From an uncultured Spirochaetota bacterium (GTDB lineage: Bacteria; Spirochaetota; Spirochaetia; SZUA-6; Fen-1364), in the NCBI GenBank assembly GCA_963781885.1, contig CAWAHW010000002.1:32001-96000 (forward strand): a DNA stretch of 64,000 nucleotides, in the 5' to 3' direction. The notes under the pieces are model-generated. The model searched no databases, was not told the DNA's origin, and was given only the letters and a program-made list of their open reading frames with translations. Both the position numbers and the translations under genes were made by a program. This document shows positions 32,801 to 51,364 of the stretch, piece after piece (the stretch's first letter is position 1; each line of letters starts with the position of its first letter).

Positions 32801-33705
32801 ATGACGCGGTTGGGGGCACCATCAAGATGCTCCGTCGCCTCATCGGGGAGAACATCGAGCTCGTCTGGAAACCCGGTTCCCTGAAGGGGAGGGTGAAGAT
32901 CGACCCGACGCAGCTCGACCAGATACTGGCCAATCTCAGCGTTAACGCCCGCGACGCGATCGACGGCGTTGGCGTCCTCACGCTGGAGACGGTGGAGGTC
33001 GTCTTCGACCAGGCCTACTGCGACACGCACGCGGGCTTCCTCCCCGGACGCTTCCTCCTTCTCTCCGTCGGGGACGACGGCCCGGGCATGACGCGCGAGG
33101 TGCAGGCGCATCTGTTCGAGCCGTTCTTCACGACAAAACCCGCCGGCCAGGGGACCGGCCTGGGGCTCGCAACGGTGTACGGCATCGTGAAGCAGAACAA
33201 CGGCTTCATCAATGTCTACGCGGAGACCGGTCATGGCTCACTTTTCCGCATCTACCTGCCCGACGCATCGCAGCAGGGGGACGTCGCAGAGGTGAAGGCG
33301 GAGAAAACGGCGCCGCAGGGCGGGAAGGAGACCATTCTCCTTGTGGAGGACGAGAAGGCGATACTCGAGGTGAGCAAGACGATCCTCGAGAGCCTCGGCT
33401 ACACGGTGCTCACGGCCGGCACGCCGGCGGAGGCGATCCGCCTGGTGGAGAGCCACGACGCCTCCATCGACCTGCTCGTCACCGACGTCATCCTCCCGCA
33501 GATGAACGGGCGCGACCTCTCCCGGCGCCTCGCCGTCCGCCAGCCGCGGATGAAGTGCCTCTATATCTCGGGGTACACCGCGGACGTGATCGACCACCAG
33601 GGCCTGCTGGATCCCGGGGTGTACTTCCTCCCCAAGCCGTTCGCCATCCATGACCTTTCCGCGAAGATTCGCGAGGTGCTGGAAGGGACCGGACAACCGG
33701 CGTGA
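29893..33705 (+). CDS. membrane hybrid sensor kinase (Cache-like/PAS/GAF/PAS/PAS/HisKA/HATPase/REC)
   Basis: Two TM helices, AQKMESVGRLAGGVAHDFNNML, FFTTKPAGQGTGLGL, and a C-terminal REC (LLVEDE, TDVILP, KPF). Confidence 0.95.
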   Translation: MNGRSEPARFVPWRRFAALGIGFLILAMGAVWLFASQRASLRRRAEEDLGAIARLQVDRIVNWRDQRIADATSLADNPLLDDQMALWARDPAPGLTARLLAALTPAQLQNHYEDILLLDAAGVVRGSVTGADRSFEKEDADTLQLAMRQRRAVMTDIHQNGTAASVIEVFTPVFAGSDARDALLGAIVLRFDATAFLESLLQSWPMHSDTGETYLVRRDGDAVLYLSELRFRRDSALSLRIPLARSDVLAVKAVGGATGVMYGRDYRSARVLGYALPVPETPWILLAKEDEGEILASWRLNSAVLLGLLVVAAAAAALVLGLAWLRNTRRHDVSLQAGEERYQTTLMSVGDCVIAADADGAVQIMNPAAEALTGWTEAEAQGRPLADVLKIEDSDARSTVLIARNGSPHAVARNVSPVRGSAGAPAGVVVVFRDVTDELRRNDERHITLQLLGYLNQDSDTEGLVRSVTGLLQSWTLCEAVGVRLQDGDDYPYFETRGFPGDFVEAERFLCERGMDGRALRDNEGHPALACMCGAVLRERTDPTKPFFTPKGSFWSNGTSELLASTTEADRQGPTRNRCNAQGYESVALIPLRSGSGMLGLLQVNDKRPGRFSPELLRFLENAADQIAIALAQRRARAALEESETHYRSLFGNMLNGFAFCKMIYEAGEPADFIYLDVNEAFGKLTGLVDVVGRKVSVVIPGIRESDPELIRTYGRVARGGPPERFETYLGSLDMWFAISVYCPRPDHFVAIFDVITERKKAEAGRQLLASAVEQAAEMIIITDAAMAVQYVNPAFESVTGYARAEVQGKLLNLLNSGEQTADFYRSIWETISKGKPWKGRFVNRKKDGTVYTEDTVISPVYDANGRIANYVADSHDITRELQLEGQLLQAQKMESVGRLAGGVAHDFNNMLQVISSYVEFSMRDSTLSDAQRRNLQQIRTAASRSADLTSQLLAFARKQPFNPKILDLNDAVGGTIKMLRRLIGENIELVWKPGSLKGRVKIDPTQLDQILANLSVNARDAIDGVGVLTLETVEVVFDQAYCDTHAGFLPGRFLLLSVGDDGPGMTREVQAHLFEPFFTTKPAGQGTGLGLATVYGIVKQNNGFINVYAETGHGSLFRIYLPDASQQGDVAEVKAEKTAPQGGKETILLVEDEKAILEVSKTILESLGYTVLTAGTPAEAIRLVESHDASIDLLVTDVILPQMNGRDLSRRLAVRQPRMKCLYISGYTADVIDHQGLLDPGVYFLPKPFAIHDLSAKIREVLEGTGQPA

Positions 33706-36467
33706 TAAGGGACGCACGGAAGGATTACCTGCATCTCGTCCCTCCGTTGCTCGTGCTTGCTTTTGCCGTCACGTTCTTCAGATCCAATAATGCCTCGGTC
33801 TTCGAGCCGCCTTTTCTTCTGCCGCTTTTGAACACGGTCCTGCTCTCCGCGCTGCCCTTCGTCATTGCTTTCCTTGCCGCAAGGAGCTTCGTACGGCAGG
33901 GAACGCGCATGTTCGTCCTGTACGGCTGCGGCATGGTGGTCTTCGGCATGGGGAGCCTGCTGGGAGGGTGGGGTCTCCTTCTCTACGGTGAAAACGTTTC
34001 GGTGACGGCGCAGAATATCGGCTGCTTCCTCGGCGGCATGTGCCACCTTGCCGTCGTCATTTTCCTTATCCTCGGCCCGCCGGGAAAGCCTCAGCGTTCG
34101 CGGCGGCACGCCGCCCTGGCATGCGCAGCCGCTTACGCGGCCTTTGTCATCGTGGTTGTCGTCGTTTCCGTGTTTGCGAACAAAGGGTACCTGCCGATCT
34201 ACTTCGCCCCGGATCGAGGCCTCACATCGACCCGGCTCATCGTCCTTTCCACGTCCGCGATCACCTACACGCTGAGCGCAATCCTCGTTGCGGCCCTGAA
34301 TACACGCACCCGCATGCTGTTTCTCACGCTGTACTCCTGCGGTCTTTTTCTCACCGCCATGGGGCTGGGCGTGCTGCTGAACCTGGGGACCATTGGCAGC
34401 GCGCTCGGCTGGACGGGCAGGACGGCCCAGTACGCGGGAAGCCTTTACTTCGGCGCCGCGATTCTCGTGGGCATCCGCGAGACGCGGCTTGCCGGCACGT
34501 CTCTGCCCGTCTACCTGGGGGAGCTCTTTCGGTCCCGGCTGGATGACCAGGTGCGCGACAGGACGCATGACCTTGTCACCCTGAACGAAAGGCTCGTGCA
34601 CGAGGCGCAGGAGAGACTCCTGGCGGAAGAAGAGCTGCGTCGCAGCGAGGAACGCCTGCGTCTCGCCGCGGAATCGACCGGGTTCGGCGTCTATCGCTAC
34701 AGCTTCGGGACGGGCAGCGCGTACTACTCCCCCGAGCTCCTGAAGCTCTTCGGCCTGCCGCCGGATGCCCCGTTGCCCCTGGATGAGGACCTGGTTGCAC
34801 GGGCGCTACACCCCGACGATCGCGCCGACTATCTCGCGCACATGAACGCGGCAAATGACCCGGGCGGTTCCGGGATCCTGGACCTCGAGTACCGCATCCT
34901 GAGGACCGACGGCGAGCAGAGATGGCTGAAGGTCCGCGGACGGACCACTTTCTCCGGCAGCGGCGACGGGGGACGACCCGTGTCTGCCAGCGGAATCGTC
35001 CAGGACGTCACGGAACGCAGGCAGGCGGAAGCGAAGATCGAGGAGCGGGAAGCGACGTATCGGTCCGTCATCGAGAACTCCCTTCAGGGCGTTGCCATCA
35101 TCCAGGATGGCAGGATTGTCCTTTGCAATGAGGCCCTCTGCAGGATGAATGGCTACTCCCGGGACGAGGTGTATCGCATGACGCAGGAGGAGGTTCTCGA
35201 GACCGTCCACGTGGAGGATCGCGCAATGGTGGCCGCGTCGACGCGCGCGCTCACGGAAGGCGTCGAGCTGCCGGCCCGGGTCGTCCGATTTCTGGACAAG
35301 ACGGGCGGAATCCGATGGGTCGAAGTGCTCGCGGCAAGGACGGTGTTCCATGGATCGCCTGCCTTCCAGATGTCGTATGTCGACGTCACGGAGCGACGAC
35401 GCGCGGAAGCTGCCTACCATTCACTCATCGACCACGCCATGCTCGGCATGGCCATCCTGAAGGATGGCCGCGTCGTTTTTGCCAACCCGGCGCTCGCGGA
35501 AATCTGCGGGTATTCCGTGGACGGAGCTGCTCCATCTCGACGCCCGAGCAGGAGGTATCCGTTGCCTGATTGTACGAGGACGTGGAGATTGGAAGTGCTG
35601 CAGTCACGCATCGTCCGAGCGCCTTGCGGGCCAGAGGCCGCGCGGACCCAGGTGTTCAGGATTCATGCGCAAGGACGGAAGCCTGCGATGGGTGGAGACG
35701 CAGACGATGCGTCATCGACTATGAAGGAGAGCCCCGCGTTGCAGGTGTCGTACAAGGATGCGACGACGGAATTGGCCGCGGAAGAGAGGCTCCGGAGCGC
35801 CCACACGAATATGCGGAACCTGGCCGTGCACCTGCTCCACGCCCGCGAGGAGGAGCGGCGAAATGTTGCGCGGGAGATTCATGACGAGCTCGGCCAGACC
35901 CTGGCGGCACTCAAGATGGACCTCCATTGGCTGGCAAAGCGCCTGTCGGCGGACACGGGGCCGGTGCAGGAGAAGATCAAAGGAACGATCGAGCTCGGGG
36001 AACAGGCAATCAGCACCGTGCAGCGCATCGCCGCGTATCTCCGGCCGAGGATGCTGGACGACCTGGGCCTGGCACCGGCGCTGGAGCAGCTCGGTGCAGA
36101 TTTCATGCGTCGAACGAAGATCACCTGCAGCGTGACGGCCGAGGTCTCTGCGCTGATTGGAAAAAACGCGGCAACCACGTTGTACCGGATAGCCCAGGAA
36201 GCCCTGGCGAATGTCGGGCGGCATTCACACGCCGACAACGCCTCCATCCGCATGACCGTTGCCGGCGGAACGCTCGATCTCCGCGTCGAGGATGACGGCA
36301 TTGGCATCACCTGGCAGCAGGCGGAAGCGCCCGGCGCGTATGGTCTCATCGGGCTCCGCGAGAGAGTGGAGGGCCTGGGGGGCAGCCTGTCCATCACGGG
36401 AGAGCTCGGACGCGGGACGATCGTTCTGGCGCGCATTCCCCTTCCGCCGGAAGGGGGGCTCGCGTGA
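33702..36467 (+). CDS. multi-TM, multi-PAS sensor kinase, HisKA_3 (NarX/UhpB type)
   Basis: N-terminal TM bundle, three PAS domains, REEERRNVAREIHDELGQ, LDDLGL, QEALANV, DDGIG and GLIGLRERV. 35520-35720 is scrambled by compensating indels. Confidence 0.92.
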   Translation: MIRDARKDYLHLVPPLLVLAFAVTFFRSNNASVFEPPFLLPLLNTVLLSALPFVIAFLAARSFVRQGTRMFVLYGCGMVVFGMGSLLGGWGLLLYGENVSVTAQNIGCFLGGMCHLAVVIFLILGPPGKPQRSRRHAALACAAAYAAFVIVVVVVSVFANKGYLPIYFAPDRGLTSTRLIVLSTSAITYTLSAILVAALNTRTRMLFLTLYSCGLFLTAMGLGVLLNLGTIGSALGWTGRTAQYAGSLYFGAAILVGIRETRLAGTSLPVYLGELFRSRLDDQVRDRTHDLVTLNERLVHEAQERLLAEEELRRSEERLRLAAESTGFGVYRYSFGTGSAYYSPELLKLFGLPPDAPLPLDEDLVARALHPDDRADYLAHMNAANDPGGSGILDLEYRILRTDGEQRWLKVRGRTTFSGSGDGGRPVSASGIVQDVTERRQAEAKIEEREATYRSVIENSLQGVAIIQDGRIVLCNEALCRMNGYSRDEVYRMTQEEVLETVHVEDRAMVAASTRALTEGVELPARVVRFLDKTGGIRWVEVLAARTVFHGSPAFQMSYVDVTERRRAEAAYHSLIDHAMLGMAILKDGRVVFANPALAEICGYSVDGAAPSRRPSRRYPLPDCTRTWRLEVLQSRIVRAPCGPEAARTQVFRIHAQGRKPAMGGDADDASSTMKESPALQVSYKDATTELAAEERLRSAHTNMRNLAVHLLHAREEERRNVAREIHDELGQTLAALKMDLHWLAKRLSADTGPVQEKIKGTIELGEQAISTVQRIAAYLRPRMLDDLGLAPALEQLGADFMRRTKITCSVTAEVSALIGKNAATTLYRIAQEALANVGRHSHADNASIRMTVAGGTLDLRVEDDGIGITWQQAEAPGAYGLIGLRERVEGLGGSLSITGELGRGTIVLARIPLPPEGGLA

Positions 36468-37096
36468 TCCGCATCCTGGTGGCCGACGATCACAGCGTCG
36501 TGCGGAAAGGGCTGCTGCAGATCGTCGCCGAAAGTCCCGGCATGAAGGTCGTCGGCGAAGCCGCCTCCGGGCAGGAAGCCCTGGAGCTGGCCCGCTCCTG
36601 CCCGTTCGACGTCGTCATTCTCGACATTGCCATGCCCGGACGCGGCGGCCTGGATATCCTCCGGGAGCTGAAAGCGGAAAAACCGGCCTTGAAAGTGCTC
36701 GTGCTGAGCATGTACCCCGAGGAGCAATACGCCATTCGCAGCCTTCGAGATGGCGCTTCAGGCTACCTTACGAAGGGGTGCCCGCCGGAAGAGCTCGTCC
36801 TGGCAATCAGGACAATCGCGGACGGAAAGAGATACATCACGCCGTCAGTTGCCGACAGGCTCGCTTCCTATGTCGAAGACAGCGCCGGAGAAACCCCCCA
36901 CGAATCACTGTCCGACAGGGAAATGAGCGTCCTTGTCCTGATCGGCGCAGGGAAACAGGTTTCGGACATCGCGGAAGAGCTGAAGCTCAGCGTCAAGACA
37001 GTGAGCACGTATCGCTCGCGCGTGCTTGCAAAAATGAGAATGGAAACGAACGCCCAGCTTATCCGCTATGCCCTCCAGCACCGTCTCGTCGAATGA
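36464..37096 (+). CDS. NarL/UvrY-family response regulator
   Basis: LVADDHSVVRKG, LDIAMP, and a LuxR HTH LSDRE...LKLSVKTVSTYRSR. Confidence 0.95.
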   Translation: MIRILVADDHSVVRKGLLQIVAESPGMKVVGEAASGQEALELARSCPFDVVILDIAMPGRGGLDILRELKAEKPALKVLVLSMYPEEQYAIRSLRDGASGYLTKGCPPEELVLAIRTIADGKRYITPSVADRLASYVEDSAGETPHESLSDREMSVLVLIGAGKQVSDIAEELKLSVKTVSTYRSRVLAKMRMETNAQLIRYALQHRLVE

Positions 37097-37114
37097 TGTA
37101 GGAAAAGTCCTACA
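37097..37114. promoter_or_regulatory. palindromic putative response-regulator binding site
   Basis: TGTAGG-AAAAGT-CCTACA, the same geometry as the GacA/UvrY box TGTAAG-N6-CTTACA. Confidence 0.6.
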
Positions 37115-37170
37115 AAAGAATCCGACATTACCTGATACCGACGTGAAAAGCGTCACATGATAATGCCATT

Positions 37171-37545
37171 GTGATAGTACTTCTGATCGATCATGAGACG
37201 CCGTTGCGGACGCGGCTCGCGGGAGCCATCTCCGAGCTGGCGGATGTCCAGCTTCAAATCCAGGAGCCCGGCTCGTCGGAAGTCGACACGACTATCACGG
37301 AGCTGCGTCCTGATGTCGTTCTCATCGACATCGACGAATCGCGCGGCAGCGGTCTGGAAATGATCAAGCGGATCCGTGCGCGCCGGCAGGAGCGGAGACC
37401 GGTGATCATGGCGATCGCCAGCTCCGCCTCCATTCGGTATCGGGAAAGTTGCCTGGAAGCCGGCGCCATGTACTTTTTCAATTGCATGAGAGAGCAGGAC
37501 TGGCTCCTGGAATCACTTGCATCGATCCGCGAGCAATTGGGGTGA
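37171..37545 (+). CDS. single-domain, atypical response regulator
   Basis: LLIDHE, PDVVLIDID, SGLEMIKRI and CLEAGAMYFF. The conserved Lys is absent. Confidence 0.75.
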   Translation: MIVLLIDHETPLRTRLAGAISELADVQLQIQEPGSSEVDTTITELRPDVVLIDIDESRGSGLEMIKRIRARRQERRPVIMAIASSASIRYRESCLEAGAMYFFNCMREQDWLLESLASIREQLG

Positions 37546-37578
37546 ATCACACTATGTGACAGGGAGGCTCGAGATCGC

Positions 37579-38241
37579 ATGAAAGAACAGTCTGGCCGTG
37601 ACTCCCTATCCGACAATCGTCTTCCCGCATTCACCCGGGCGCTCCTGGAAGTGGACCGCGTGGCATCCCAGCGGATCCTCCTGGAGTCCGATCCGTCGGG
37701 CGGTCCGATGGAGCGCATCGAGCGGCTGATCGTTCCCGCGCTCGTCAGCATCGGCAACGGCTGGGACGACGGGAGCGTTTCTCTTTCCCAGGTCTACATG
37801 GCGGGTCGGTTGTGCGAAACGCTGGTCGACGCGATCCTGCCGGCTGCCGATCCGCAGCGGCGCCGCAATCCAATCATGGCGATTGCCGTGCTCGAAGACT
37901 ACCACATGCTCGGCCTGCGCATCGTCTACGCGGCCCTGCGCGCTTCGGGCTTTGAGCTTGCCAACTACGGTCGGCTCAGCGTGGATGAGGTGACGGCGCG
38001 CGTGAAGGCTGACGGCGTCGCTTTCCTGCTGCTGTCGGTCCTGATGCTTCCCTCCGCTCTGCAGATCAAAGAGGTGACGGCGCGCCTTCGCGCCGAAAGC
38101 CCGGCGACGAAGGTCATCGTCGGCGGTGCGCCTTTCCGTTTCGACCCGAACCTCGCCGCCGAGGTCGGAGCCGACGCCGTGGGCGATTCCGCCGGAGAGG
38201 CCGTGGCCATCGTGCGCCGCTTCATGGAAGTCCGGCCGTGA
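37579..38241 (+). CDS. corrinoid (cobalamin-binding) protein
   Basis: Cap domain IVPALVSIGNGWDDGSVSLSQVY, B12 motif EDYHMLG (DxHxxG), LLSVL, VIVGGAP and VGADA. Confidence 0.9.
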   Translation: MKEQSGRDSLSDNRLPAFTRALLEVDRVASQRILLESDPSGGPMERIERLIVPALVSIGNGWDDGSVSLSQVYMAGRLCETLVDAILPAADPQRRRNPIMAIAVLEDYHMLGLRIVYAALRASGFELANYGRLSVDEVTARVKADGVAFLLLSVLMLPSALQIKEVTARLRAESPATKVIVGGAPFRFDPNLAAEVGADAVGDSAGEAVAIVRRFMEVRP

Positions 38242-39295
38242 GCGCCGTCATGACGTCTGCCGAGCGCGTTCAAACGGCGCTCGCACACAAGGAGCCCGAC
38301 CGTGTGCCGTTCCTGCTTCCCGCCATCCTGCGGGGTGCACGGGAGATGGGTCTCTCCATCCAGGACTACTTTTCGGACGCGGAAGCCGTTGCGGAAGGCC
38401 AGATACCGGCTTCAGCAGAAGCTCGGACATGACGGGCTTTTCGGATTCTTTTATTCCAGCCAGGAGCACGAAGCATTCGGTGGGGAAACGGTATTTCGCG
38501 CCGATGGTCCGCCGAATGCCGCCGGGCCGGTGATCTCGACGCCGGCGGACATCGATAGGATGGAGCCGCCGCGCATCGATGACTCCCCGACCCTCCGGCG
38601 CGTGCTGCGCGTCATCGCGCTGCTGCGGGCGCATGCCGGGCAATGACGTCCCGGTCCTCGGCGTCGCGATCTCGCCGTTTTCACTTCCCGTGATGCAGAT
38701 GGGCTTCGAGTCCTATCTCGTGCTCATGCACGAGGACCCGGTGCGATTCGAGCGCCTTGTCCGCGTCAACGAGGAGTTCACCGTCGCGTGGGCGAATGCG
38801 CAGATCGCAGCCGGGGCGAGCGCCATCTCATTCGCCGATCCCGTCTCGTCTCCCACGATCGTTCCGCGGTCGCTGTACCTGCGCACGGGATGGGCGATCG
38901 CGTCGCGGACGCTCGCCCGCATCGGCGCCCCGTGCGCGACCAGCTTCGCGTCGGGGCGGATCCTGCCGATCGTGGAGGACATCGCGCGGACCTGCACGGT
39001 CGCCGTCGGGGCGAGCGCGATGGAGGACCTGGCGGCGACCAAGGACCTCTGCCGCGGACGCCTGGCGGTGATGGGGAATCTCAACGCAATCGAGATGCGG
39101 TGCTGGACACCCGCGGTCGCGGAAAAGAAGGTCAAGGAAGCCATTTCCAAGGCAGGACCCGGCGGCGGCTTCGTGCTGACCGACAATCACGGCGAGATCC
39201 CGTGGCAGGTGCCCGACGAGGTCCTTGTCGCCATCGCCGATGCGGTGCGCCGTTGGGGCTCCTATCCCCTGGCGTGGGTTTCCGACGATGCCTGA
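38238..39295 (+). CDS. uroporphyrinogen decarboxylase/MtaA-CmuA methyltransferase family protein; frameshifts near 38403 and 38640
   Basis: [47 protein letters not shown] and GGGFVL, spread over three frames. Confidence 0.85.
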
Positions 39296-42200
39296 CGGTC
39301 TCACGCTCCGGGTCTGCCGCCATTGCACGCATGAAGCGCGGGCCGCCCTGCGCGAAGACGGGATCGATGACGTCGCCATTTCTGCATGCTCCGGTGAGTG
39401 CATTTCCCGGAAGAACGGGCACGAGGACGGGCCCGATACCGCCGAGGTGGGAATATGCCAGGCGCTGCCCCCGCACGACGTGGGGGAGGGGCCCGCCGCA
39501 GTCCGGGATTTCGGCATCGGGCATTTCCTCTCTTTCATTGCGCCTCCGCCTTTGATCAGCGCACAAATCGCCCGGGGCGCCTATGTCGTGACCCCCGGGT
39601 GGCTGGATGACTGGCGCCGCCGCCTCGAGGAATGGGGTTTCGACCAGACGACAGCCCGGGACTTTTTTCACGAATTCAGCCGCGCCATCATCCTGTTCGA
39701 TACCTTCATGATGCCGGAAGCGGGCGCACGTCTTCGTGAGATGGGAAAATATCTTGCCCTGCCGACAGAAACCGTTCCCGTGGGCATCGATCATTTCCGG
39801 CTCGCCATGCGATCCCTGATTCAGGATTGGCGGCTTCGCAAGGCCATCGCCGCATCCGTCGATGCCGGCCAGCGCAGCGCGCAGAAGCTTTCCGCTCATG
39901 CCATGGCAATGGACATGACGAGCAGGCTGACCCGGATGATGAGCGAGGACGACACAGTCACGGCAATCAAGGAGTCGTGCGCGATGCTTTTTGGAGCGCG
40001 TGCCGTGCATTTCGAGAAAAACGGCGGCGAGCCGGATGCCCGCTTACCGGTCGCGCTCGATCCGGGTGTTGACCATCGGGAGACCGCGGCGGGTTTTGTC
40101 CTGCGTGTTGCCCACCTCGGCGAGACGCTGGGGTTCCTGGTCGTCGACGAGGTTGCGCTGCCCCAGCATCGGGCCGCCTATCTCAATCTGGCTCTTGACC
40201 TCGTTGCCGTCTGCGGCCTGGCAATCCACAACGCGCGGTCCGTCGCGAAGATCCGGGAAACCGAGCAGGCACTGCAGGCGGCGAAGCTGGCGGCCGAGGC
40301 GGCGAATGCATCGAAGAGCATGTTCCTCGCGAACATGAGCCACGAGATCCGCACTCCCATGAACGCCGTCATCGGATTGTCGGACCTCGCGCTGAAGACC
40401 GACCTCACCCCGCGGCAGAGGGACTACGTCGGAAAGATCCACAACTCCGGCATCTCGCTGCTCGGGGTCATCAACGACATCCTCGACTACTCGAAGATCG
40501 AGGCGGGTCGTCTTTCGATCGAGCATGTGGATTTCACCCTGGATGAGTTGATGGACAACCTGATCGCGATCACCAACCACGGCGTCAATGCGAAAGATCT
40601 GGAGCTCATCCTCGACGTGGCCCCCGACGTGCCGCAGAACCTCGTGGGCGATCCCCACCGTCTCGCGCAGATCTTCACGAACCTCGTGAGCAATGCGACG
40701 AAGTTCAGCGAGAGCGGGAACGTGGAGGTGAAGGTCGCCTGTCTCCAGCGGACGGGGGAAAAGGTGAAGCTGTGCTTCGGCGTGCGGGACAGCGGCATCG
40801 GCATGACGGAGGAGCAGGCCGCGCGGCTGTTCACGCCCTTCACGCAGGCGGACGCCTCGACGACGCGGAAGTACGGTGGGACCGGCCTGGGGCTCAGCAT
40901 CTGCAAGAGGCTCGTGGAGATGATGAGCGGTCAGATCTGGGTGGAGAGCGCCCCGGGAAGAGGGAGCACGTTCACCTTCACCGCCTGGCTCGACCTCGGC
41001 GCGGGGAAGGGACAACGGGAGCATGTCCTCCCGTCGACACTCGCCGGCCTTCGGGTGCTGGTGGTGGACGACAACCCCGTGGCGCGCGAGATCATGCAGA
41101 GCACGCTTGTGTCCCTGCGTTTCCGCGTCGAGATCGCCCGCTCGGGCGAGGAGGCCGTGGACGCCGTCGAGCGCGCGGACGGTGACGATGCCTTCGCCCT
41201 GGTGCTCATGGATTGGAAGATGCCCGGCATTGACGGCATCGAGGCCACCGCGCGGGTTCTCGGCGATGGGCGCCTGCGGCACGTGCCCGTTGTCTTCCTG
41301 CTCAGCGCGTCCGGCGGAGGAGAGGGGGAGCGCGAAAGGGCCCTGGCGGTCGGGGCCGCGGATTTTCTGGCGAAACCCATCACGGGGTCGACCCTGTTCG
41401 ACGCGATTGTGAGGACATTCGCGCCCAGTCTCGTGCCCGCGCGGACGGGCCCGTCATCGGATCCCGCGGAGATCCAGGACATGAAGGGCGCGCGCGTGCT
41501 GCTCGCGGAGGACAACGGGATCAACCAGCAGATCGCGACGGAGCTCCTCGAACGCGCGGGGATGGAGGTGGTCACGGCGGACAATGGCCTCGCCGCGCTG
41601 GAAGCCATGGCACGGGAGGGTGACCGCATCCACCTCGTCCTGATGGATATCCAGATGCCGGTGATGGATGGTTACGAAGCGACACGTCGGCTGCGCGCGC
41701 AGGCGCGGTTCGCCCGGTTGCCCATCATCGCCATGACGGCTCACGCGCTGGAAGAGGAAAGGCAGAAGGCCCTTGAAGCGGGAATGAACGACCATATCAG
41801 CAAGCCCATCGACCCGAAGGCCATGTTCGAAACGATCCGTCGCTTCCTTCGCACAGCGGATATCCCCACGACGCGCGTGCGCATCGCGCCGCCGCGCGTC
41901 GACGAGGCGGCATTTCCGGCGATCCGCGGCGTGGACGTCACGACCGCGCTCACGCGGCTGGCCGGCAACCACCGACTCTACCGCGGCTTGCTGAAGGAGT
42001 TCGTCGAAAAGCAGGCAGGCTGCGCGCGGGACATCGGGGAGGCCCTCCTCCGGGGCGACGTGAAGCATGCCGAGATCCGCGCGCATACCATGAACGGGAT
42101 CGCGGGCAACCTCGGCGTGGACGCCGTGCATGCCGCCGCCGCGGAGCTGGAAAGGCTGCTCCGTGAAAAGGAATCGCCGCAGGTGATCGAAGCGGGACGT

Positions 42201-42560
42201 GTCCAACTGGAGACGATCCTTCGCGAGGCGCTGGACTCGATCCGCGCGGCGCTCGCTGAGACGGAACGACTCCCCCCGCGCGCCGATTCCGGACCTTCCC
42301 TCGAGGACCCGGACGCCGCGCTCTCCGTCCTGGTGCGTATGATCCAGGAAAGCGACAGCGAGGCGTTGGAGGTATTCGAATCGCAGCATGCATTCTGGGT
42401 GAAAACAGCGGGCCCCGAGGAAACGAAGACGGTCGCCGACCTGCTGCGGGGATACGATTTTCCCGCGGCACTCTTGCACGCGCAGGGGCTTCAGCGGCGC
42501 CTTCGCGCATTGGGGAGACCGGTCGTGGGCGCCGCCGAGAGGGACAAGGAAAATGGGTGA
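39288..42560 (+). CDS. cytoplasmic hybrid histidine kinase with N-terminal DUF1638-like domain (GAF-like/HisKA/HATPase/REC/REC/Hpt)
   Basis: Cys-containing N-terminus with [13 protein letters not shown]...FDT, then [25 protein letters not shown], two REC domains and an Hpt [12 protein letters not shown]. Confidence 0.9.
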
Positions 42561-43818
42561 GACAAAAATGCTCGTAAGCAGGAGGAGGCGCTTTTTTCCC
42601 GGCGTCCTGCTGTTCCTCATGCTCGTCGCACAAAGCACGGCGGCTGCCGCGCCCCTCCTGTTCCTCTCCACGCAGCTCGCACCCGTTGCCGAAGCCACCA
42701 TGATGCGCCAGCTCATTCTCAAGGACTTTCCGCTCTCCGTGGATTTCGAGCCCTACGACCGGGCGATATACAACACGCGGGTGACGAGCCTCGTCTCGCA
42801 CCCCGGCGGCGCCGCGGTCCTGGGGGGTGTGCAGGAAGAGTTTCTCGACATGGACCGGGCGGGCGCTTTGGAAAGCCTGGATGGCCTTTGGCCGACTTTG
42901 ACCGGGCGGACATTCCTCCCGGGGCTGACGGGGAGGAGATTGTCGGGCACTGATCACGTCTCCTTTGTCCCCTGGATGCAAGCGACATACCTCATGGCCG
43001 CCAATAAACGCGCCATTCCCTATCTTCCCAAGGGCGCGGACCTGAACCGGCTGAGCTACGAAGAGCTGAAGGAGTGGGCGGCCGCCATGTTTCAGGCAAC
43101 GGGAAAAGGAAAACTGGGCTTTCCCGTCGGTCCGAAAGGGCTGATGCAACGATTCGTGCAGGGATTCCTCTATCCTTCATTCACCGGAAGCATGGCGGAC
43201 GATTTCGCGGGCCAGAATGCCGTTTCCATGTGGCGGTACATGAGCGATCTCTGGCAATACGTGGCCCCTTCTTCGCTGACGGCGAACCGCATGGACGAAT
43301 CGCTGCTGAACGGCGAGGTCTGGGTCGCCTGGGATCACACGGCGAGACTCCTGGAGGCGTTCAAGGAACAACCCGATGATTTTATCGCTTTCCCCGCGCC
43401 CATCGGACCGCAGGGTCGCGGCTTTATCTCCGTCCTGGCAGGGCTTGGCATGCCGAAGGGATCGTCCTCTTCAGCAGGGGAAAAGCTCATCGAGTATCTC
43501 ACCCGGCCTTCCGTACAGCTCCAGACGATGGAGAGCGTCGGCTTCGTGCCCGTGGTGGAGATCGGCGCGGACGAACGGTTCTCGGAAGGTCTTTCCAAGC
43601 TTGTCAATGCCACCGTCGAACAGGTGAGCTCTTCGAACGCGATTCGCAGCTCGGTGCCCCTGCGAAGCGCGGACGCCGGCAGGAGCTTCGACCTCGTTTA
43701 CGCGGTTGCATTTTCACGCATCGTGCTTCGGAGTGCGGGCATCCAGGAGGTCCTGGCGAGACAGGAGAAGATGCTGCGCGCAATAGAGACGGCCGATCGG
43801 CCGGCGGGTGGCCCATGA
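42553..43818 (+). CDS. sugar-type extracellular solute-binding protein (orphan)
   Basis: Signal peptide with [40 protein letters not shown] and LIEYLTRP. No permease or ATPase gene is adjacent. Confidence 0.85.
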
Positions 43819-46800
43819 AAAACCTCTCCGCGCGGTCCGTCGTCCTGCTCTTCGTGGTGTTCGCGTGCGTCATTGTCGGCGGCGGCGGGTACGTCTGGTC
43901 TCACTTGCGCGCCGCCGAAAAGGACCTGCGGGAGTCCAAGTTCGCGGCGGAGACGAACCTTTTTCCCCTCGTGCAGGAGACTGTCAACTTGCAGGCCGCG
44001 CTTCAAGCATTCATCCTCGATCCATCATCCGCGAACCGGGAGCAGCTCATCTTCTCTTCGGACGTCGTCTTTTTCCAGACGCATTCCGCTCAAAGCAATG
44101 TGCTTCCCTCGGCGTCGACGGATGCCCAGGTGACGGTGACGGACCTCCAGCAGGTTCTTGCGATACTTGAATCTCTCCTTGTCACGCCACAGATACAAAA
44201 GGATGTCCTCGCGGCCCTTCAGAACCGGCTGGACAACACGTTCGTGGCGCTTCAGAACGCCTATCTCGCCTCCAGCGACGCGGCAATGCGACAGTATGAG
44301 AACCAGATCTCTCAATTCAGCTCCCTGCGGTTCATTACAATGGTCGTCATGGCGCTCTTCGGGCTTTCCCTGGCCATTGCGGGGTTGCTCGTGTACACCC
44401 AGCGTCGGGCGATCATCCAGATATCCGAGGCAACATCGTCGGAAAAGAAGCAGCGGGAGCGGCTGAATCTCGCCATACAGGGCGGAGGGCTCGGCTACTG
44501 GGAAAGTGACGTGTCGACGGGACGCATGACGGTCAATCGCCGGTGGGCGGAGATATACGGATTTACAATGGCAGACATCGAGGATGCCTGGCAGACCCTG
44601 CGGGAATGCCTCCATCCCGACGACCGTGATCGCGTCCTCGAGATCAACGCGGAGCTCCAGAGGGGCGCGCGATCGGAGTTTTCCATCGAATACCGGGCGT
44701 TCATCAACGGTGGGGAGATGCGGTGGATGTCGGCCAATGGATCCATCATTGAGACGGACGATCAGGGAAATCCGAAGACCGTTGCCGGCACGGTGATGGA
44801 CATCACCAGCCGCACGCTCGCGCAGGAGGCCATCGAGAAGGCCCGGCAGGCCGCGGAAGATGCCAACAAGTCCAAGAGCGATTTCCTGGCGAACATGAGC
44901 CACGAGATCCGCACGCCGATGAACGCGGTCATCGGATTCTCCGACCTTGCCCTGAAGACCGAAATGACGCCGCGGCAGAAGGACTATGTTTCCAAGATCC
45001 ACAATGCGGGGGTGTCCCTTCTGGGGCTCATCAACGACATCCTTGACTTCTCCAAGATCGAGGCGGGCCGCCTGGAGATCGAGCGCGTCGATTTCTCCAT
45101 CGAGGAGGTGCTGGACGCGGTTGCCTCTGTCGCCAGCCAGGGTGCGTTCGCAAAGGGGCTGGAGTTCCTCCTGAACATCTCGGATGCCATCCCCTCGGTG
45201 CTCGTCGGCGATCCCCACAGGCTTGGCCAGATTCTCATCAATCTGGTCGGCAACTCGGTGAAGTTCACGGAGACGGGCGAGGTGGAGCTGCGCGTGACCC
45301 TCAACGAGAGGACGGGCGACAAGGTGAAGCTGCGCTTCTCCGTGCGCGATACCGGCATCGGCATGACCGCCGAGCAATGCGCGAAGCTTTTCCGGCCCTT
45401 CACGCAGGCCGACAGCTCGACGACACGGAAGTACGGGGGCACGGGCCTCGGCCTGAGCATCGTGCGGCGTCTCGTCGAGATGATGAGCGGCCAGATCTGG
45501 GTGGAGAGCGAGCCGGGGAAGGGCACCACCTTCGTGTTCACGGGCTGGTTCGACCTGAGCGCGAAGGAAAAGCAGGGCCTGCGCTCTTTGCCCGCGATGC
45601 TGGAAGCGATGCACGTCCTGGTGGTGGACGACAACGTCATGGCGCGCGAGGTGATGAAAAACGTCCTCCAATCCATGCGATTTCGCGTGCACGCGGTCTG
45701 CTCGGGGGAGGAGGCGGTGGAATCCGTGGCGCGCTTCGATGCCGAGGATCCGTTCGGTCTGGTCGTGATGGACAGGAAGATGCCCGGCATGGACGGCATC
45801 GACGCCACGAGGAGGATCGTGAAGGGTGACCTGGTGAAAAGCGTGCCGGCCGTGCTCGTGGTGAGCGCGTCAGGCGGGGGGGATGAGGAACGGGAAAGTG
45901 CCCGGGAGGCCGGCGCCGCGGACTTCCTGACAAAGCCGGTCACGGCGTCCTCATTTTTCGATGCGATCATGCGGGCATTCGCGCCCGATCTTCTTCCCAA
46001 GGAGGTCGTGATCCCCACGAGGACCCCGGGTGTACGTGCACTGGAAGGCGCCCGGATACTCCTGGCCGAAGACAATGAGATCAACCAGCAGATCGCCTCC
46101 GAGCTTCTCACCGCCGCGGGTGTGGACGTGATCGTCGCGAAAACGGGCTGCGAGGCCGTGGACATGCTGACGCGCGGCGCCGGCAGATATGACATGGTCC
46201 TGATGGACGTCCAGATGCCCGAGATGGATGGATACGAAGCCACCCGGCGCATCCGGGCGGACGGCCGATTCGCCGACCTGCCCATCCTTGCCATGACCGC
46301 GCACGCCTTCATGGAAGAGAGGCAAAAGGCGATGGAAGCGGGCATGGACGACCACATCAGCAAGCCCATCGATCCCCAGGCCATGTTCGAGACGCTGCGC
46401 CGCCACTATCGGAGCGCGCGCGCCCCGGCTCCACGGACACCTCCCACCGTCGCCGCCGAGCCGGTGAGCGTTCCTGAAATCCCGGGCATTGACGTGCAGG
46501 GAGGGATCGGACGGGTCGCCGGTAACCGCAAGCTCTACCGGGATCTTCTGGAAAGGTACGTCGAGGGGCAGCGCGATTCGGCCGACAGGGTCCAGGAGGC
46601 GCTTGCGAAAGGGGATGCGGCCCTCGCGCAGCGGATTGCACATACAACGAAGGGGGTGTCGGGCAACATCGGAGCGGCCGACGTGCAGGCCGTTGCCGGC
46701 GAGCTGGAACAGTCGATACGAAAGGCGGAAGACCGCACCGGGGAGATCATCGAGCGTTTTTCAACGGTCCTGGATGCAACATGCCAGCGGATACGGTCGG

Positions 46801-47078
46801 CCCTTGGCGAGACCTTGGGGCCGGTGAAAAAGATGGAGTGTCCTGATCCCGATCCCTTCCCGGTGAAGGATGCATTGAAAAAGCTCACATGGTTCGCGGA
46901 AGAGAGCGACAGCGAAGGCTTCGAATACCTGGAATCGATTCGAGGGCAGCTTGCCGCGGCGCTTGCGCCTGAGGATCTCCATGATCTGGAGGAGGCGCTA
47001 AAAGCCTACAATTTCCCGGCGGCCCTGGGAACGCTGCGGCGACTCTCGGAAGGGGCACACGATGGAAATGCGCGCTGA
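43815..47078 (+). CDS. membrane hybrid histidine kinase (periplasmic/PAS/HisKA/HATPase/REC/REC/Hpt)
   Basis: Two TM helices, PAS (LHPDDR), [14 protein letters not shown], two REC domains and an Hpt [12 protein letters not shown]. Confidence 0.95.
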
Positions 47079-48183
47079 CAATCAGAAAAGAGCGACCGTG
47101 CTGATCGTGGACGATGCGCCCGACAACATCGCCCTCCTGAGCTCTCTCCTGCGGGGAATCTACCGGACGAAGATCGCGATCGACGGCGCGAAGGCCCTCC
47201 AAATCGTTTTTTCCGGCGATCCGGTCGACCTGATCCTTCTCGACGTCATGATGCCGGGGATGGACGGATACGAGGTGTGCCGTCGTCTGAAGGCAGACCC
47301 CCGGTCCGCGGACATTCCGGTGATCTTCCTCACGGCCCTGACTCGCATCGAGGACGAGCAGAAAGGGTTCGAGCTCGGCGCGGTCGACTTCATCGCGAAG
47401 CCGGTGAGCCCGCCGATCGTCACGTCGAGGGTCAAGACACATCTCCAGCTGAAGAGCGCCCGTGACTACCTGGTGGACAAGAGCGACTACCTCGAGAAGG
47501 AGGTCGCCCGCAGGACGCACGAGATCAGCATCATCCAGGACGTCACGATGGTCGCGCTGGGGTCGCTCGCGGAGACGCGGGACAACGAGACGGGAAACCA
47601 CATCAGGCGTACGCAGCGCTACGTGAAGGTGCTTGCCGAGAAGCTGAAAGATCACCCCCGGTTCTCCGACTTTCTGACGCCTGAGACGATCCAGCTTCTC
47701 CACAAATCGGCGCCGCTTCACGACATCGGAAAGGTGGGCATCCCCGACAATATCCTGTTGAAGCCGGGAAAGCTCACCCCCGACGAGTACGCGATCATGC
47801 AGACCCACGCGGAGATCGGCCGCAACGCGATCATGGCGGCGGAAGCGGGCCTGGATACACCCACCTCGTTCCTGCGCCTTGCCCGGGAGACCGCCTGGTC
47901 GCATCACGAGAAGTGGGACGGCACGGGATACCCGCAGGGCCTCTCCGGGGACGACACGATGATCTCCGGGCGGATCATGGCCGTCGCGGACGTCTATGAC
48001 GCGCTGATCAGCAAGCGCGTCTACAAACCGGCGTTCTCCCACGAGCATGCGTCATCGATCATCAAGGAGGGAAGCGGGACCCAATTCGACCCCGACATCG
48101 TGGATGCGTTCATGGAGGAATCCGCCCAATTCAGGGAGATCGCCTTGAAATATGTCGATTCGGAAGGAGCAGGTGTTTCATGA
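47062..48183 (+). CDS. REC + HD-GYP c-di-GMP phosphodiesterase (RpfG-like)
   Basis: REC, then [31 protein letters not shown] and ADVYDAL. Confidence 0.95.
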
Positions 48184-49283
48184 AAAATGAAAAAAAAGTC
48201 GTCCTCGTTGTCGACGATGCCCCGGAGAACATCGCCACGCTGGATGCCATCCTCAAGGAGACCTACCGTGTGAAGGCGGCGACGGACGGAGAGGTCGCCC
48301 TGGCGATCGCGTGCGGCGATCCTCCTCCCGACCTGATTCTCCTCGACGTCATGATGCCCGGCATGGATGGGTTCGAGGTATGCCGCAGGTTGAAGCAGAA
48401 CGGCGCGACCGCGAAGATTCCGGTCATCTTTGTGACGTCCAAGGACGACGTATCCGACGAATCGACGGGCTTTGCCGTCGGCGCCGTCGACTATGTCGTG
48501 AAACCCGTGAATCCGCATCTGGTGCGCGCCCGGGTGAAATCCCACCTCGCCTTGAAGGAGGCTTTGGAGGAGATGGAGGGCCAGAACGAGATCCTGCGGG
48601 AGAACGTCCGACTCCGGGAAGAGGTCGAGGCAATCAACAGGCACGATCTGAAAAACCCCCTGATGATCGTGATGAACGTTCCCCAGGTGATCCTGGCCGA
48701 GGCGCACCTGACGGAAGGCCAGCAGAAGCTTCTGCGGATGGTGGATGAGGCGGGACGCAGGATGCTCGAGATGATCAACCGCACCATCGATCTCTACAAG
48801 ATGGAGCGCGGCACGTACGCGCTCAAGCCCGCCCCTGTCGACATCCTTTCCATCGTCGGACAGATCGTGGCGGCGTTACGAGGCATGTTGGAAGAGAAAG
48901 GTCTCACGTGCGAGATCGCCGTGAATGGAAACGCCGCCCGCGCGGGGGCTTCCGTCATGGCCAGGGGCGAGGATCTCCTTGTCTATTCCCTTATCGCGAA
49001 TCTCCTCAAGAACGCGGCCGAAGCCTCTCCACAGGCGGGGCGCATCTCGATCCATGTTGAGGAAGGCCAGTACGCCAAGGTTGCGATCCACAACGCGGGG
49101 GCAATCCCGGCGAGCATCCGCGGGCGATTTTTCGAGAAGTTCGCCACGGCGGAGAAAAAAGGGGGAACAGGTCTGGGCGCCTACTCGGCAAAACTGATCG
49201 CGCGGACGCTCGGCGGATCGATCGACGTCGCAACCTCGGACGAATCGGGAACCACCGTGACGGTATTTCTGCCGCGGGCGTAA
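48180..49283 (+). CDS. REC-histidine kinase hybrid
   Basis: REC, RHDLKNPL, NLLKNAAEAS and GGTGLGAYSA. Confidence 0.93.
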   Translation: MKNEKKVVLVVDDAPENIATLDAILKETYRVKAATDGEVALAIACGDPPPDLILLDVMMPGMDGFEVCRRLKQNGATAKIPVIFVTSKDDVSDESTGFAVGAVDYVVKPVNPHLVRARVKSHLALKEALEEMEGQNEILRENVRLREEVEAINRHDLKNPLMIVMNVPQVILAEAHLTEGQQKLLRMVDEAGRRMLEMINRTIDLYKMERGTYALKPAPVDILSIVGQIVAALRGMLEEKGLTCEIAVNGNAARAGASVMARGEDLLVYSLIANLLKNAAEASPQAGRISIHVEEGQYAKVAIHNAGAIPASIRGRFFEKFATAEKKGGTGLGAYSAKLIARTLGGSIDVATSDESGTTVTVFLPRA

Positions 49284-49292
49284 ATGGAAACG

Positions 49293-50411
49293 CTAGACCC
49301 GGGGCAGCGTCACGGTAATCGTGGTTCCCTCTTCCTCGGAGGTCGCGAACCGCAGGTCGCCATTCATCGTGCGGATCATGAGCCGAGCGGAATAGGCGCC
49401 CAGGCCGGTTCCTCCCTCCTTGCCTGCCGTCGTGAACTTGTGGCAGAACCGGCCGCGGATCTGCAGAGGAATGGAGCCGACGTTATGAATGGCGATCGAA
49501 GCGACGTCCGCCTCTGCCAGGGTAACGGAGACCCGGCAGCCCGGAGGAGACGCTTCGAAGGAGTTCTTGACGAGGTTGGCAAGCGCGGAATAAAGGAGCA
49601 GCTCCTCTCCCATGACGGGAAACGTGTCACCCGGCGCGAAGGGTCGCCCGCGGATGCTCACGTCGACGGACAACCCCTTGCTTTCCGACATCTCGTGGAA
49701 AGCCGTCATGATCTGATCGATGGCGCGCATGGCATCGACGGCCACGGGGGTGAACGCGTAGGTGCCCATTTCCATCTTGTAGAGATCGATGGTCCGATTG
49801 ATCATTTCCAGTATCTGGCGACCCGCGGTCTCCACCATTCCCAGAAGCTTCTTGTCGCCTTCGCTGAGTTCCGCGCTCGCCAAAAGCACGGGGGGGATGT
49901 TCATGATGATCATCAACGGGTTTTTCAGGTCGTGCCTGTTGATCGCTTCGACCTCCTCCCGCAGGCGGACATTTTGCAGGAGCACCTCGTTCTGCCTTTC
50001 CAGATCCTCCCGCGCCCGCTTCAGGTCGAGGTGCGCCTTCACACGGGCTCTCACGAGGAGAGGGTTGACGGGCTTCACGATGTAATCCACCGCCCCCACG
50101 GCGAAACCCAGGGACTCGTCGGAAGCCTCGTCCTTCGAGGTGACGAAGATGACGGGAATCTTCGCCGTCGCGGAGCTCTGCTTCAGTCTCCGGCAAACCT
50201 CCACCCCGTCGATGTCCGGCATGATGATGTCGAGAAGGATCAGGTCCGGCGGCGGATCGCTTCCCGCGATCGCGAGCGCGACCGCACCGCCGGTTGCCAC
50301 GCGCACGTGGTATTCTTCGTGGAGAATCTCGTTCAAAATGCTGATGTCATCCGGAACGTCCTCGACCACGAGGACGGTCGGCTTCACAATTCGCTCACGC
50401 GCATCGGCCAT
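49293..50411 (-). CDS. REC-histidine kinase hybrid, paralog of 48180-49283
   Basis: REC, EEVEAINRHDLKNPLMI, NLVKNSFEAS and GGTGLGAYSA. Confidence 0.93.
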   Translation of the reverse strand: MADARERIVKPTVLVVEDVPDDISILNEILHEEYHVRVATGGAVALAIAGSDPPPDLILLDIIMPDIDGVEVCRRLKQSSATAKIPVIFVTSKDEASDESLGFAVGAVDYIVKPVNPLLVRARVKAHLDLKRAREDLERQNEVLLQNVRLREEVEAINRHDLKNPLMIIMNIPPVLLASAELSEGDKKLLGMVETAGRQILEMINRTIDLYKMEMGTYAFTPVAVDAMRAIDQIMTAFHEMSESKGLSVDVSIRGRPFAPGDTFPVMGEELLLYSALANLVKNSFEASPPGCRVSVTLAEADVASIAIHNVGSIPLQIRGRFCHKFTTAGKEGGTGLGAYSARLMIRTMNGDLRFATSEEEGTTITVTLPRV

Positions 50412-50596
50412 TCTTCCTCCCGCGCGGCGTCCACCTCGCCCGCGATCGCGATCGTCCCCGCATCGCGACCTGGCGAACATCATATGGCAGCCGACCGCCG
50501 TTGTAAACGGTTCGCGTCTCCGTTGCGTTCCAGGGTCACAACGACTATGATGTTCAGGACGGCACCGCATATCGCTTTCGCCACCGCGGGAGGCGG

Positions 50597-50990
50597 ATGC
50601 TCATGATCGAAACGTCGGGAAAGAAACGCATTCTCGTGGTCGACGACGAGCCGCAGAATATCGTCGTCATGCGGGAAATCCTCAAATCGGACTACACAAT
50701 CATCGCGGCGACGGACGGGATGAAGGCGCTTTCTCTCGTGCAATCCGCGACGCCCCCGGACCTCATCATGCTGGACATCGTGATGCCCGGGATCGATGGA
50801 TACGAGGTGCTCCGACGACTCCGCGCGAGCCCGCGCACGGCGGGTTTGCCCGTGATCTTCGTGACGGCGATGGACGCGATCGACGACAAGATGACCGGGT
50901 ACGCATTGGGGGGCGCAGAACTACGTCACCAAGCCTCTTGACGCCCCGTTCGTAAAGAGCGTCGTACGCAGGTTGTTAGGCCCTGGATGA
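50597..50990 (+). CDS. single-domain response regulator; frameshift near 50920
   Basis: ILVVDDEP, LDIVMP and VIFVTA. After one extra base the frame continues YVTKPLDAPFVKSVVRRLLGPG-stop. Confidence 0.85.
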
Positions 50991-51007
50991 GCGGGAAGGA
51001 CGGACGC

Positions 51008-51355: not shown

Positions 51356-51364
51356 GGCGCGACG

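Follow-up and report, generated by a model that had tools for sequence, protein, structure and literature searches.

Vitamin B12 is used as an enzyme cofactor, as a riboswitch ligand, and as a light-sensing chromophore, and in CarH and AerR the B12-binding domains act as photoreceptors. In Methanosarcina the kinases MsmS and RdmS are reportedly encoded beside corrinoid methyltransferase genes. The present analysis concerns three adjacent genes, hereinafter the trio or cassette, in a 64,000-nucleotide stretch of DNA from an uncultured Spirochaetota bacterium (contig CAWAHW010000002.1, positions 32,001 to 96,000 of the forward strand), and this whole stretch is designated the window. The trio encodes a corrinoid (B12-binding) protein, a URO-D/MtaA-like protein, and a soluble hybrid histidine kinase whose N-terminal part, or head, includes a DUF1638 domain (Table 1). 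According to the sequence comparisons the trio is very probably a sensory input module, while the mechanism suggested for it, the reading of a methyl-transfer state, is a tentative proposal; the favoured explanation as a whole, sensory cassette plus methyl-transfer-state mechanism, stands about evenly balanced between acceptance and doubt.

The trio shares components with several described systems. Pairs of the MtaC/MtaA type (methanol, methylamine, and methylthiol:CoM systems, CmuA, and bacterial O-demethylases) likewise combine a His-on protein built of cap and B12 domains with an adjacent partner of URO-D fold; the best NCBIfam matches of the two cassette proteins, TIGR02370 and TIGR01463, belong to this group, and MtaA (4ay7) is the best solved relative besides HemE. 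Unlike these pairs, the trio proteins stay far below both family cut-offs, lack the MtaA zinc ligands, have neither a substrate methyltransferase nor an activator beside them, and are joined by a third gene which encodes a signalling protein. CarH, AerR/PpaA, and the predicted photoglobin-B12 bundles resemble the trio in that a cap-plus-B12 module serves signalling instead of catalysis; they differ from it since the trio contains no DNA-binding domain, PpsR partner, or photoglobin, nothing in it points to light, and its B12 protein, a chain distinct from the signalling protein, is accompanied by an enzyme-like partner and a DUF1638-GAF reader. As in MecA and MsmS/RdmS, a histidine kinase gene stands in one cluster with genes of a corrinoid protein and an MtaA-like protein; those kinases have inputs of the PocR or heme type and control a complete catabolic cluster, whereas the input of the trio is taken from the corrinoid world and no pathway is present. 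For MecA this clustering is reported in the accessible part of the description of the mec cassette (bioRxiv 10.1101/2021.08.30.458270), and photoglobin-B12 modules are predicted, in the accessible part of another study, to feed kinases and GGDEF proteins of two-component systems (PMC8717448).

The third component, DUF1638 (PF07796), has been studied as a stand-alone protein. In Phaeobacter inhibens the DUF1638 gene adjoins the cap-plus-B12 gene of a three-part methionine synthase, is needed to make methionine, and occurs together with a RamA-like protein, the accessible part of the paper giving no mechanism (PMC5764234); a role of DUF1638 in recharging cobalamin is predicted again in the accessible part of a 2025 paper (PMC12478193). 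As far as these sources go, the methionine synthase link makes DUF1638 a part of the corrinoid-protein world, which fits a head that reads the corrinoid protein. The window domain resembles the stand-alone proteins (PGA1_c13340 of Phaeobacter inhibens and SPO2162 of Ruegeria pomeroyi) in its Pfam family and in its vicinity to a cap-plus-B12 protein, and differs from them in that a GAF-like domain and a signalling output follow it in one polypeptide. The sequence-only reading of the window, made earlier by a model, knew of no experimental description of such a system, and literature searches on its parts turned up none: the cassette is not described in the literature found on DUF1638/PF07796, on corrinoid or cobalamin sensor kinases, or on URO-D/B12 operons, none of the literature found naming DUF1638 deals with kinases, and the combination of corrinoid, diguanylate cyclase, and MtaA gave nothing.

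Conservation of the Trio and Exchange of Its Outputs

In the window the three genes are coupled by overlapping stop and start codons, as had been noticed from the letters alone: the overlap is GTGA at 38238-38241 between the B12 and URO-D genes and ATGCCTGA at 39288-39295 between the URO-D and kinase genes. A pattern scan with one genome per species yielded 45 loci, which were then searched by tblastn for each of the three parts. In 42 of them the genes of B12 protein, URO-D protein, and DUF1638 head follow each other in this order on one strand, and the start of the head gene mostly lies no more than about 20 nucleotides (nt) from the URO-D end. Lack of conservation across genomes, which the sequence-only reading named as a possible refutation, is thus not what was found. 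L007 is the same locus as L006 (100% protein identity), the contig end cuts the URO-D gene in L040, the B12 and URO-D genes are truncated in L025, which is among the 42, and in a Nitrospinota metagenome-assembled genome (MAG; L050:3072-5007) the DUF1638 domain (211 amino acids, aa) and the GAF-like part are split over two adjacent genes.

Judging by host names, the 45 loci represent about a dozen or more phylum-level groups, which include Spirochaetota, Myxococcales, Archangium, Verrucomicrobiota, Candidatus Viridilinea, Alphaproteobacteria, Burkholderiaceae, Rubrivivax, several Desulfobacterota groups, Geomonas, Geobacter, Holophagaceae, Bryobacterales, Bacteroidetes, Thermoleophilia, Synergistaceae, Clostridia, Hydrogenedentes, Nitrospirae, and Nitrospinota. 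The URO-D protein is the best conserved, its median identity over the loci being 55%; the corresponding values are 47% (B12 protein) and 31% (head). Over 37 loci the three genes show correlated similarity scores (Spearman coefficients of 0.59–0.77), for which relatedness alone would account in part, and this suggests that the trio is inherited as a unit. In the one other genome of the same family that carries the head, the B12 protein, an intact URO-D protein, and the DUF1638 kinase are encoded in the order seen in the window, and REC-Hpt and REC-kinase genes come next.

The constant input is joined to different outputs. Among 46 head proteins (the window and the 45 loci) there are 26 with HATPase_c, 22 with HisKA, 10 with a receiver, and 6 with GGDEF; ten head proteins of 412–503 aa, scanned singly, showed no Pfam output domain. 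A head profile searched against 1.84 billion representatives gave 2301 matches at E<=1e-3, 1528 at E<=1e-10, and 1062 at E<=1e-30. In all the best 150 matches, with total lengths of 349–1403 aa, the head is located at or near the N-terminus, and 70 of these 150, every second from the top, contained DUF1638 in 70 cases, HATPase_c in 51, GGDEF in 9, and HD_5 in 1. The neighbourhood survey for swapped outputs that had been proposed as a check therefore gave the expected picture, the same head being joined to a kinase, GGDEF, or HD-GYP.

The neighbours of the trio were taken as the nearest same-strand open reading frames (ORFs), 33 downstream and 37 upstream, by a mechanical choice in which some ORFs may be spurious. 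Signalling domains alone are common to them, and the flanking genes are not conserved. Neither a second methyltransferase, a pterin methyltransferase, or RamA/RACo as a recurrent neighbour, nor a conserved DNA-binding regulator was found among these ORFs. Within the 64-kb window no further B12-binding, URO-D, or RACo match exists besides the trio, in agreement with the earlier statement that pathway, substrate methyltransferase, and activator genes are missing from it. In 20 of the 45 host genomes no RACo match was obtained; many of these genomes are MAGs, in which absence is not proven, and among them are a Rubrivivax isolate and several genomes of 6–12 Mb.

These data bear on a metabolic explanation, in which the B12 and URO-D proteins are half of a methyl-transfer pathway, DUF1638 is a maturation or reactivation factor, and the kinase is a co-transcribed regulator, comparable to the kinases that dichloromethane degraders and Methanosarcina encode next to corrinoid methyltransferases. 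The genome holds, outside the window, 19 URO-D matches, 8 B12-binding matches, and one RACo match, and the kinases of the mec cassette stand beside corrinoid methyltransferase genes (accessible part of bioRxiv 10.1101/2021.08.30.458270). Such a pair is nevertheless quite improbable, since the genes listed above are not conserved beside the trio, GGDEF and HD-GYP are among the outputs, hosts that give no RACo match also carry the cassette, and the cassette proteins form orthologous groups apart from the other paralogues of the genome. The constancy of the three-part input in order and strand, its tight coupling, the swapped outputs, the absence of travelling pathway genes, and the 20 hosts without the activator fit a receptor better than a catabolic pair, and for these reasons a sensory module is preferred to a pathway.

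The Corrinoid Protein and Its URO-D Partner

The corrinoid protein matches the cap model PF02607 with 28.5 bits and the B12-binding model PF02310 with 59.9 bits, and its motif DYHMLG fits DxHxxG, so that the hidden Markov model (HMM) check agrees with the description of a stand-alone B12 protein with a cap domain. DxHxxG, SxL, and GG are kept without exception in the 37 cassette B12-protein homologues examined, and the window protein is 62% identical to the homologue in L006/L007. The best NCBIfam match is TIGR02370 (methyltransferase-cognate corrinoid protein) with 60.1 bits against a cut-off of 215.3, and by this comparison the cassette B12 protein is classed as a subfamily separate from TIGR02370. 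The CarH family model NF052513 gives 33 bits against a cut-off of 400.

The involvement of B12 domains in photoreception raises the question of a light sensor, in which methyl- or adenosylcobalamin would be photolysed, the head would signal that the upper ligand is lost, and re-methylation of the cofactor in the dark would fall to the URO-D partner. The precedents are CarH, AerR, and the B12 domains predicted to feed two-component systems together with photoglobin (accessible part of PMC8717448), and two host genera, Candidatus Viridilinea and Rubrivivax, are by name of phototroph type. The low score for CarH, the failure of Pfam to find a MerR DNA-binding domain in the trio proteins, the likewise absent photoglobin, and the many hosts that are by name sediment or groundwater anaerobes (Syntrophaceae, Desulfobulbia, Geomonas, and groundwater MAGs) make light a very unlikely stimulus.

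The second gene was read as encoding a protein of UroD/MtaA fold, and the HMM search is in accordance with this: PF01208 covers profile positions 60–133 on the second and 134–346 on the third of the three pieces into which the gene is divided. The intact homologue P0014 (352 aa; L006:10514-11569, minus strand), from a genome of the same genus, matches PF01208 with 169.6 bits and hence has the URO-D TIM-barrel fold. A true HemE was also considered as the identity of this gene and is ruled out by the score of P0014 with TIGR01464 (43.7 bits, cut-off 302.95). The solved relatives of the URO-D partner are HemE structures and MtaA 4ay7, with E-values of about 1e-10 to 1e-11, and no conserved cysteine is present among 38 cassette URO-D homologues.

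Cassette URO-D proteins are 38–68% identical across phyla, whereas the identity to the other URO-D paralogues of the genome does not exceed 32%, and for the B12 protein the identity to the other B12-binding paralogues is at most 25%; the two cassette proteins are therefore regarded as orthologous groups of their own. According to the profile scores the parts come from known superfamilies, and neither partner reaches the cut-offs of characterised families.

The DUF1638-GAF Head

The first kinase comprises HisKA (aa 343–407), HATPase_c (454–566), two receivers (about 582–704 and 737–850), and Hpt (901–987), with the H-box residue His352 invariant in the kinase alignment, which is the full layout of a hybrid kinase with Hpt. 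Its N-terminus carries the motif VTPGW..W, invariant in the family. The description of a soluble hybrid kinase with a DUF1638-like TPGW..W input holds for the layout and the motif; the DUF1638 score of the window protein is borderline, as given below, and a GAF-like domain was not named in that description.

An AlphaFold2 model of residues 1–330, built on 43 sequences (mean predicted local distance difference test score, pLDDT, 86.8), shows the alpha/beta DUF1638 domain, a long helix (aa 168–215), and a second domain (aa 220–329), which runs into the dimerisation helix of the kinase. For aa 220–329 Foldseek found weak GAF matches with E-values of 3e-4 to 3e-2 and template modelling (TM) scores, normalised to the target, of up to 0.63, for example, the GAF domain of KdpD (4y2f; E 1.9e-3, TM 0.62); there is no Pfam GAF match in the window kinase. 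The model of a canonical DUF1638 domain from L016 reached a pLDDT of 95.6, and a fold search with it gave no PDB match at E<=0.001 (best TM 0.44), so the DUF1638 fold provides no functional lead. A complex prediction for the B12 protein with the 330-aa head, run without controls, scored 0.29 and 0.27 against a mark of 0.32.

In the cassettes the DUF1638 family possesses four nearly invariant cysteines, and these suggest a redox or oxidant sensor, in which the reduced cobalt and Co(II) are told apart, the four-cysteine domain recognises or re-reduces the inactive form, and methylation by the URO-D partner serves just to reset the cofactor, so that what is sensed is not an external methyl compound. 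Such a sensor would agree with the genetic tie of DUF1638 to RamA-type reactivation of B12 enzymes (accessible parts of PMC5764234 and PMC12478193) and with the hosts without RACo, which include large Myxococcales-type genomes. It is considered unlikely, since the URO-D protein is the most conserved member of the trio, which is unexpected for a mere reset factor, and the window head lacks one of the four cysteines.

Two further observations concern the domains of the head. The genome contains a stand-alone DUF1638 gene at C7:539185-539976 (L072:5185-5976, minus strand; 115.5 bits), whose product is 15% identical in alignment to the window domain; it lies back to back with a homoserine O-succinyltransferase gene, and this neighbourhood of a methionine synthesis gene agrees with the connection of DUF1638 to methionine synthase reported in the literature. 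At L045:3173-3574 (minus strand) a second GAF-like domain, 30% identical to head residues 199–329, is encoded by a divergent gene just upstream of the cassette of that locus.

Observations against a Working Receptor

Several observations weigh against the trio as a working methyl-dependent receptor, and the first of them concern the chemistry of the URO-D partner. P0014 reaches 102.9 bits with the MtaA/CmuA model TIGR01463, whose cut-off is 235.4. In the alignment with 4ay7 the H-x-C ... C of MtaA, which we take to be the zinc ligands, is replaced by F-x-S ... H. As the ligands are missing and the score is far below the MtaA/CmuA cut-off, methyl transfer by this protein is an assumption. The idea that a methyltransferase module was turned into a receptor, put forward in the sequence-only reading, is partly supported: the trio kept in 42 of 45 loci, the swapped outputs, and the absence of pathway genes speak for it, and a zinc-less partner that falls short of MtaA speaks against methyl transfer.

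In addition, two Hydrogenedentes MAGs (L032:4966-6972 and L033:6-1925) have the B12 protein and the head and no URO-D gene, the B12 gene being directly followed by a gene for a 456-aa DUF1638-GAF protein without a recognised output domain. As for the head, the score of the window kinase with PF07796 is 24.6 bits by hmmscan and 27.7 bits in the genome search at a cut-off of 27, and its DUF1638 membership is based on its relatives, all 46 proteins (the window included) matching at E<=0.001. Cys10, Cys38, and Cys57 are kept in the window head, and the fourth position is occupied by Phe80 after His79. RACo is present in 25 of the 45 hosts and the window genome has many corrinoid-type genes, and because of this a link with methyl metabolism may exist in the hosts with RACo; the same count speaks for the metabolic pair discussed above. 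Finally, of 24 further genomes from the family a single one has the DUF1638 head, by which the cassette is an accessory element.

A further objection is that the URO-D gene is broken as assembled. Its frames are 38238-38432, 38302-38646, and 38579-39295; alignment to P0014 places the first shift at one extra base near 38406 (ATA-C-CGG) and the second at one extra base within 38638-38641 (GGGC). The copy might therefore be a decaying remnant with real frameshifts, a dead URO-D protein, and a kinase head that no longer senses via B12. Two shifts within 240 nt, the replaced fourth cysteine together with the divergent N-terminus of the head, and the rarity of the head in the family are in line with decay. 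The same can be said of other window genes that look shifted: in the kinase gene 33702-36467 the PAS region appears shifted at about 35450-35750 (last PAS domain), with PAS-like peptides continuing in other frames, and the receiver gene 50597-50941 ends early, at about 50900, its expected ending (..NYVTKPLD..) continuing in the next frame. Furthermore, rpoB and rpoC are intact in this genome, which indicates that assembly errors are not everywhere.

On the other side stands the conservation of the broken gene itself. In tblastn with P0014 the first piece has 36/52, the second 60/97, and the third 159/218 identities, the high-scoring segment pair of the second extending past both shift points; the three pieces are conserved as well as the flanking genes or better, and no further lesion is seen. 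The URO-D gene is also frame-split in L020, which is labelled as a nanopore bin, and in L023 and L048.

The frequency of such defects in the genome was estimated with 153 long ORFs from 400 kb of two same-genus genomes, of which 72 were kept for an orthologue-like match in the genome (minimum identity 60%, minimum coverage 70%; 118 kb covered) and 81 were dropped. In 67 of the 72 genes a single frame was found, and the other 5 contained 8 frame changes in total, clustered 2–3 per gene in two cases and some located at long C or G runs. Four of these five genes are of housekeeping type by Pfam (PTS enzyme I, MutS2, DHH phosphoesterase, and pyridine-nucleotide-disulphide oxidoreductase), and the fifth corresponds to a 3018-aa protein.

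The sequence-only reading asked for a comparison with raw reads and regarded real methyltransferase frameshifts as a refutation. The DNA read run X1 contains 23% of the sampled words, and its five short contigs match the window without differences; none of them spans either shift site, and X2 and X3 are short, partly fitting pieces; no RNA run was listed as containing the sequence. X1 record 2 ends at the break site, its alignment stopping 5 letters before the contig end, exactly at 38639, which is a weak hint of a difference there and no bridge. The reads thus bridge neither site, and it is the background that makes an artefact likely: since 5 of 72 conserved genes show the same defect, the two URO-D shifts are probably errors of assembly or consensus in this 7-contig assembly, and the cassette copy is in that case probably intact. 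Decay of this copy is accordingly judged rather unlikely.

Proposed Mechanism

The receptor by methyl-transfer chemistry is regarded as possible, on balance rather doubtful, and would work as follows. The corrinoid protein would hold cobalamin in the His-on mode, and the zinc-less URO-D/MtaA-like protein would dock on it and determine its state through transfer of a methyl group from cobalt to a small molecule or in the reverse direction. Binding of the corrinoid protein by the DUF1638-GAF head would depend on this state, and the head would transmit the change along the long helix to the output domain. In this way a small methyl donor or acceptor would be detected through the cobalt-methyl state changed by the URO-D partner and read by the head. 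We infer in this scheme the protein contacts, the methyl transfer, the stimulus, the relay partners, and the reading of the cobalt state by DUF1638.

In the window the output would be the hybrid kinase with its own Hpt, which probably shares a relay with the paralogous, periplasmic-binding-protein-dependent kinase encoded downstream, and this relay probably ends at the receiver-HD-GYP protein, a likely cyclic di-GMP (c-di-GMP) phosphodiesterase as predicted from its domains. The transmitters of the two hybrid kinases are 55% identical over 757 aa from HisKA to Hpt and have the same layout, and their inputs are unrelated, a cytoplasmic B12/DUF1638-GAF head in the first and membrane segments, PAS, and an adjacent binding protein in the second. 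With such a transmitter and a periplasmic-type input in the second kinase, the operon probably merges two inputs into one relay. The earlier suggestion of a relay to c-di-GMP finds its receiver-HD-GYP gene in the window; the operon of the closest relative has no HD-GYP gene, and to that extent the suggestion is not general.

If this mechanism is true, the trio would be the first sensor with a corrinoid methyl-transfer cycle as receptor, and DUF1638 would gain a function, the recognition of the state of a corrinoid protein. A three-protein corrinoid input to kinases and c-di-GMP enzymes would add a new mode of sensing, in a module which is widespread, with over a thousand protein clusters, and occurs in anaerobes as well as in aerobes. 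It would also give access to the role of DUF1638, a domain needed for B12-dependent methionine synthesis in marine bacteria. The question is directly testable because cultured hosts (Geomonas and Rubrivivax) carry intact copies.

Gene Run and Neighbouring Features

The features of the region are collected in Table 1. The single-domain receiver lies directly 5' of the B12 gene, with 33 nt between them, and may be co-transcribed with the trio. The sequence-only reading let the operon continue into a second kinase and an HD-GYP phosphodiesterase; both are present, and the gene of a solute-binding protein, probably the partner of the second kinase, sits between the two kinases. A promoter and terminator scan of 33000-51500 gave counts no higher than in shuffled sequence.

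Table 1: Coordinates of the features discussed (plain numbers are window positions).
Feature	Position	Strand	Basis
Single-domain receiver, outside the conserved trio	37171-37545	+	PF00072, 39.2 bits
Corrinoid (B12-binding) protein, 220 aa	37579-38241	+	PF02607 cap and PF02310 Rossmann B12 domain
URO-D/MtaA-like gene, 3 frames	38238-39295	+	PF01208 on pieces 2 and 3
Hybrid histidine kinase, soluble, 1090 aa	39288-42560	+	Pfam
DUF1638 domain of the kinase, aa 1-166	39288-39785	+	PF07796, alignments, AlphaFold2 model
GAF-like domain of the kinase, aa 220-329	39945-40274	+	AlphaFold2 model, Foldseek
Transmitter of the first hybrid kinase	40314-42248	+	Pfam
Solute-binding protein, signal-peptide-like N-terminus	42553-43818	+	PF13416, PF01547; N-terminus read in translation
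Second hybrid kinase, two hydrophobic segments, PAS domain	43815-47078	+	Pfam
Receiver-HD-GYP protein	47062-48183	+	PF00072; PF13487, 100.3 bits; HD and GYP motifs in translation
Receiver-histidine kinase, final gene of the co-directional run	48180-49283	+	Pfam
Background shift sites	C2:413093-413112, 891801-891879, 1352617-1352630, 1400103-1400483; C6:290847-291500		Comparison with same-genus genomes
RACo matches with an in-frame stop	G046, G051, G052, G063, G068, G069, plus G028, G050, G059		

Three side observations can be added. About 10 kb past the window end, at C2:105719-107409, a second corrinoid protein gene (cap 79.8 bits, B12 91.1 bits) precedes a URO-D match scoring 192.7 bits, and the two are probably a metabolic pair. 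Many RACo matches contain a single in-frame stop, which is TGA in Geomonas- and Geobacter-type hosts and TAG in the window genome (C3:105424-106167), and could represent selenocysteine, two adjacent genes, or errors. The receiver-kinase genes 48180-49283 (plus strand) and 49293-50570 (minus strand) converge tail to tail with 10 nt between them; on visual comparison they are clearly similar, and they look like an inverted duplication.

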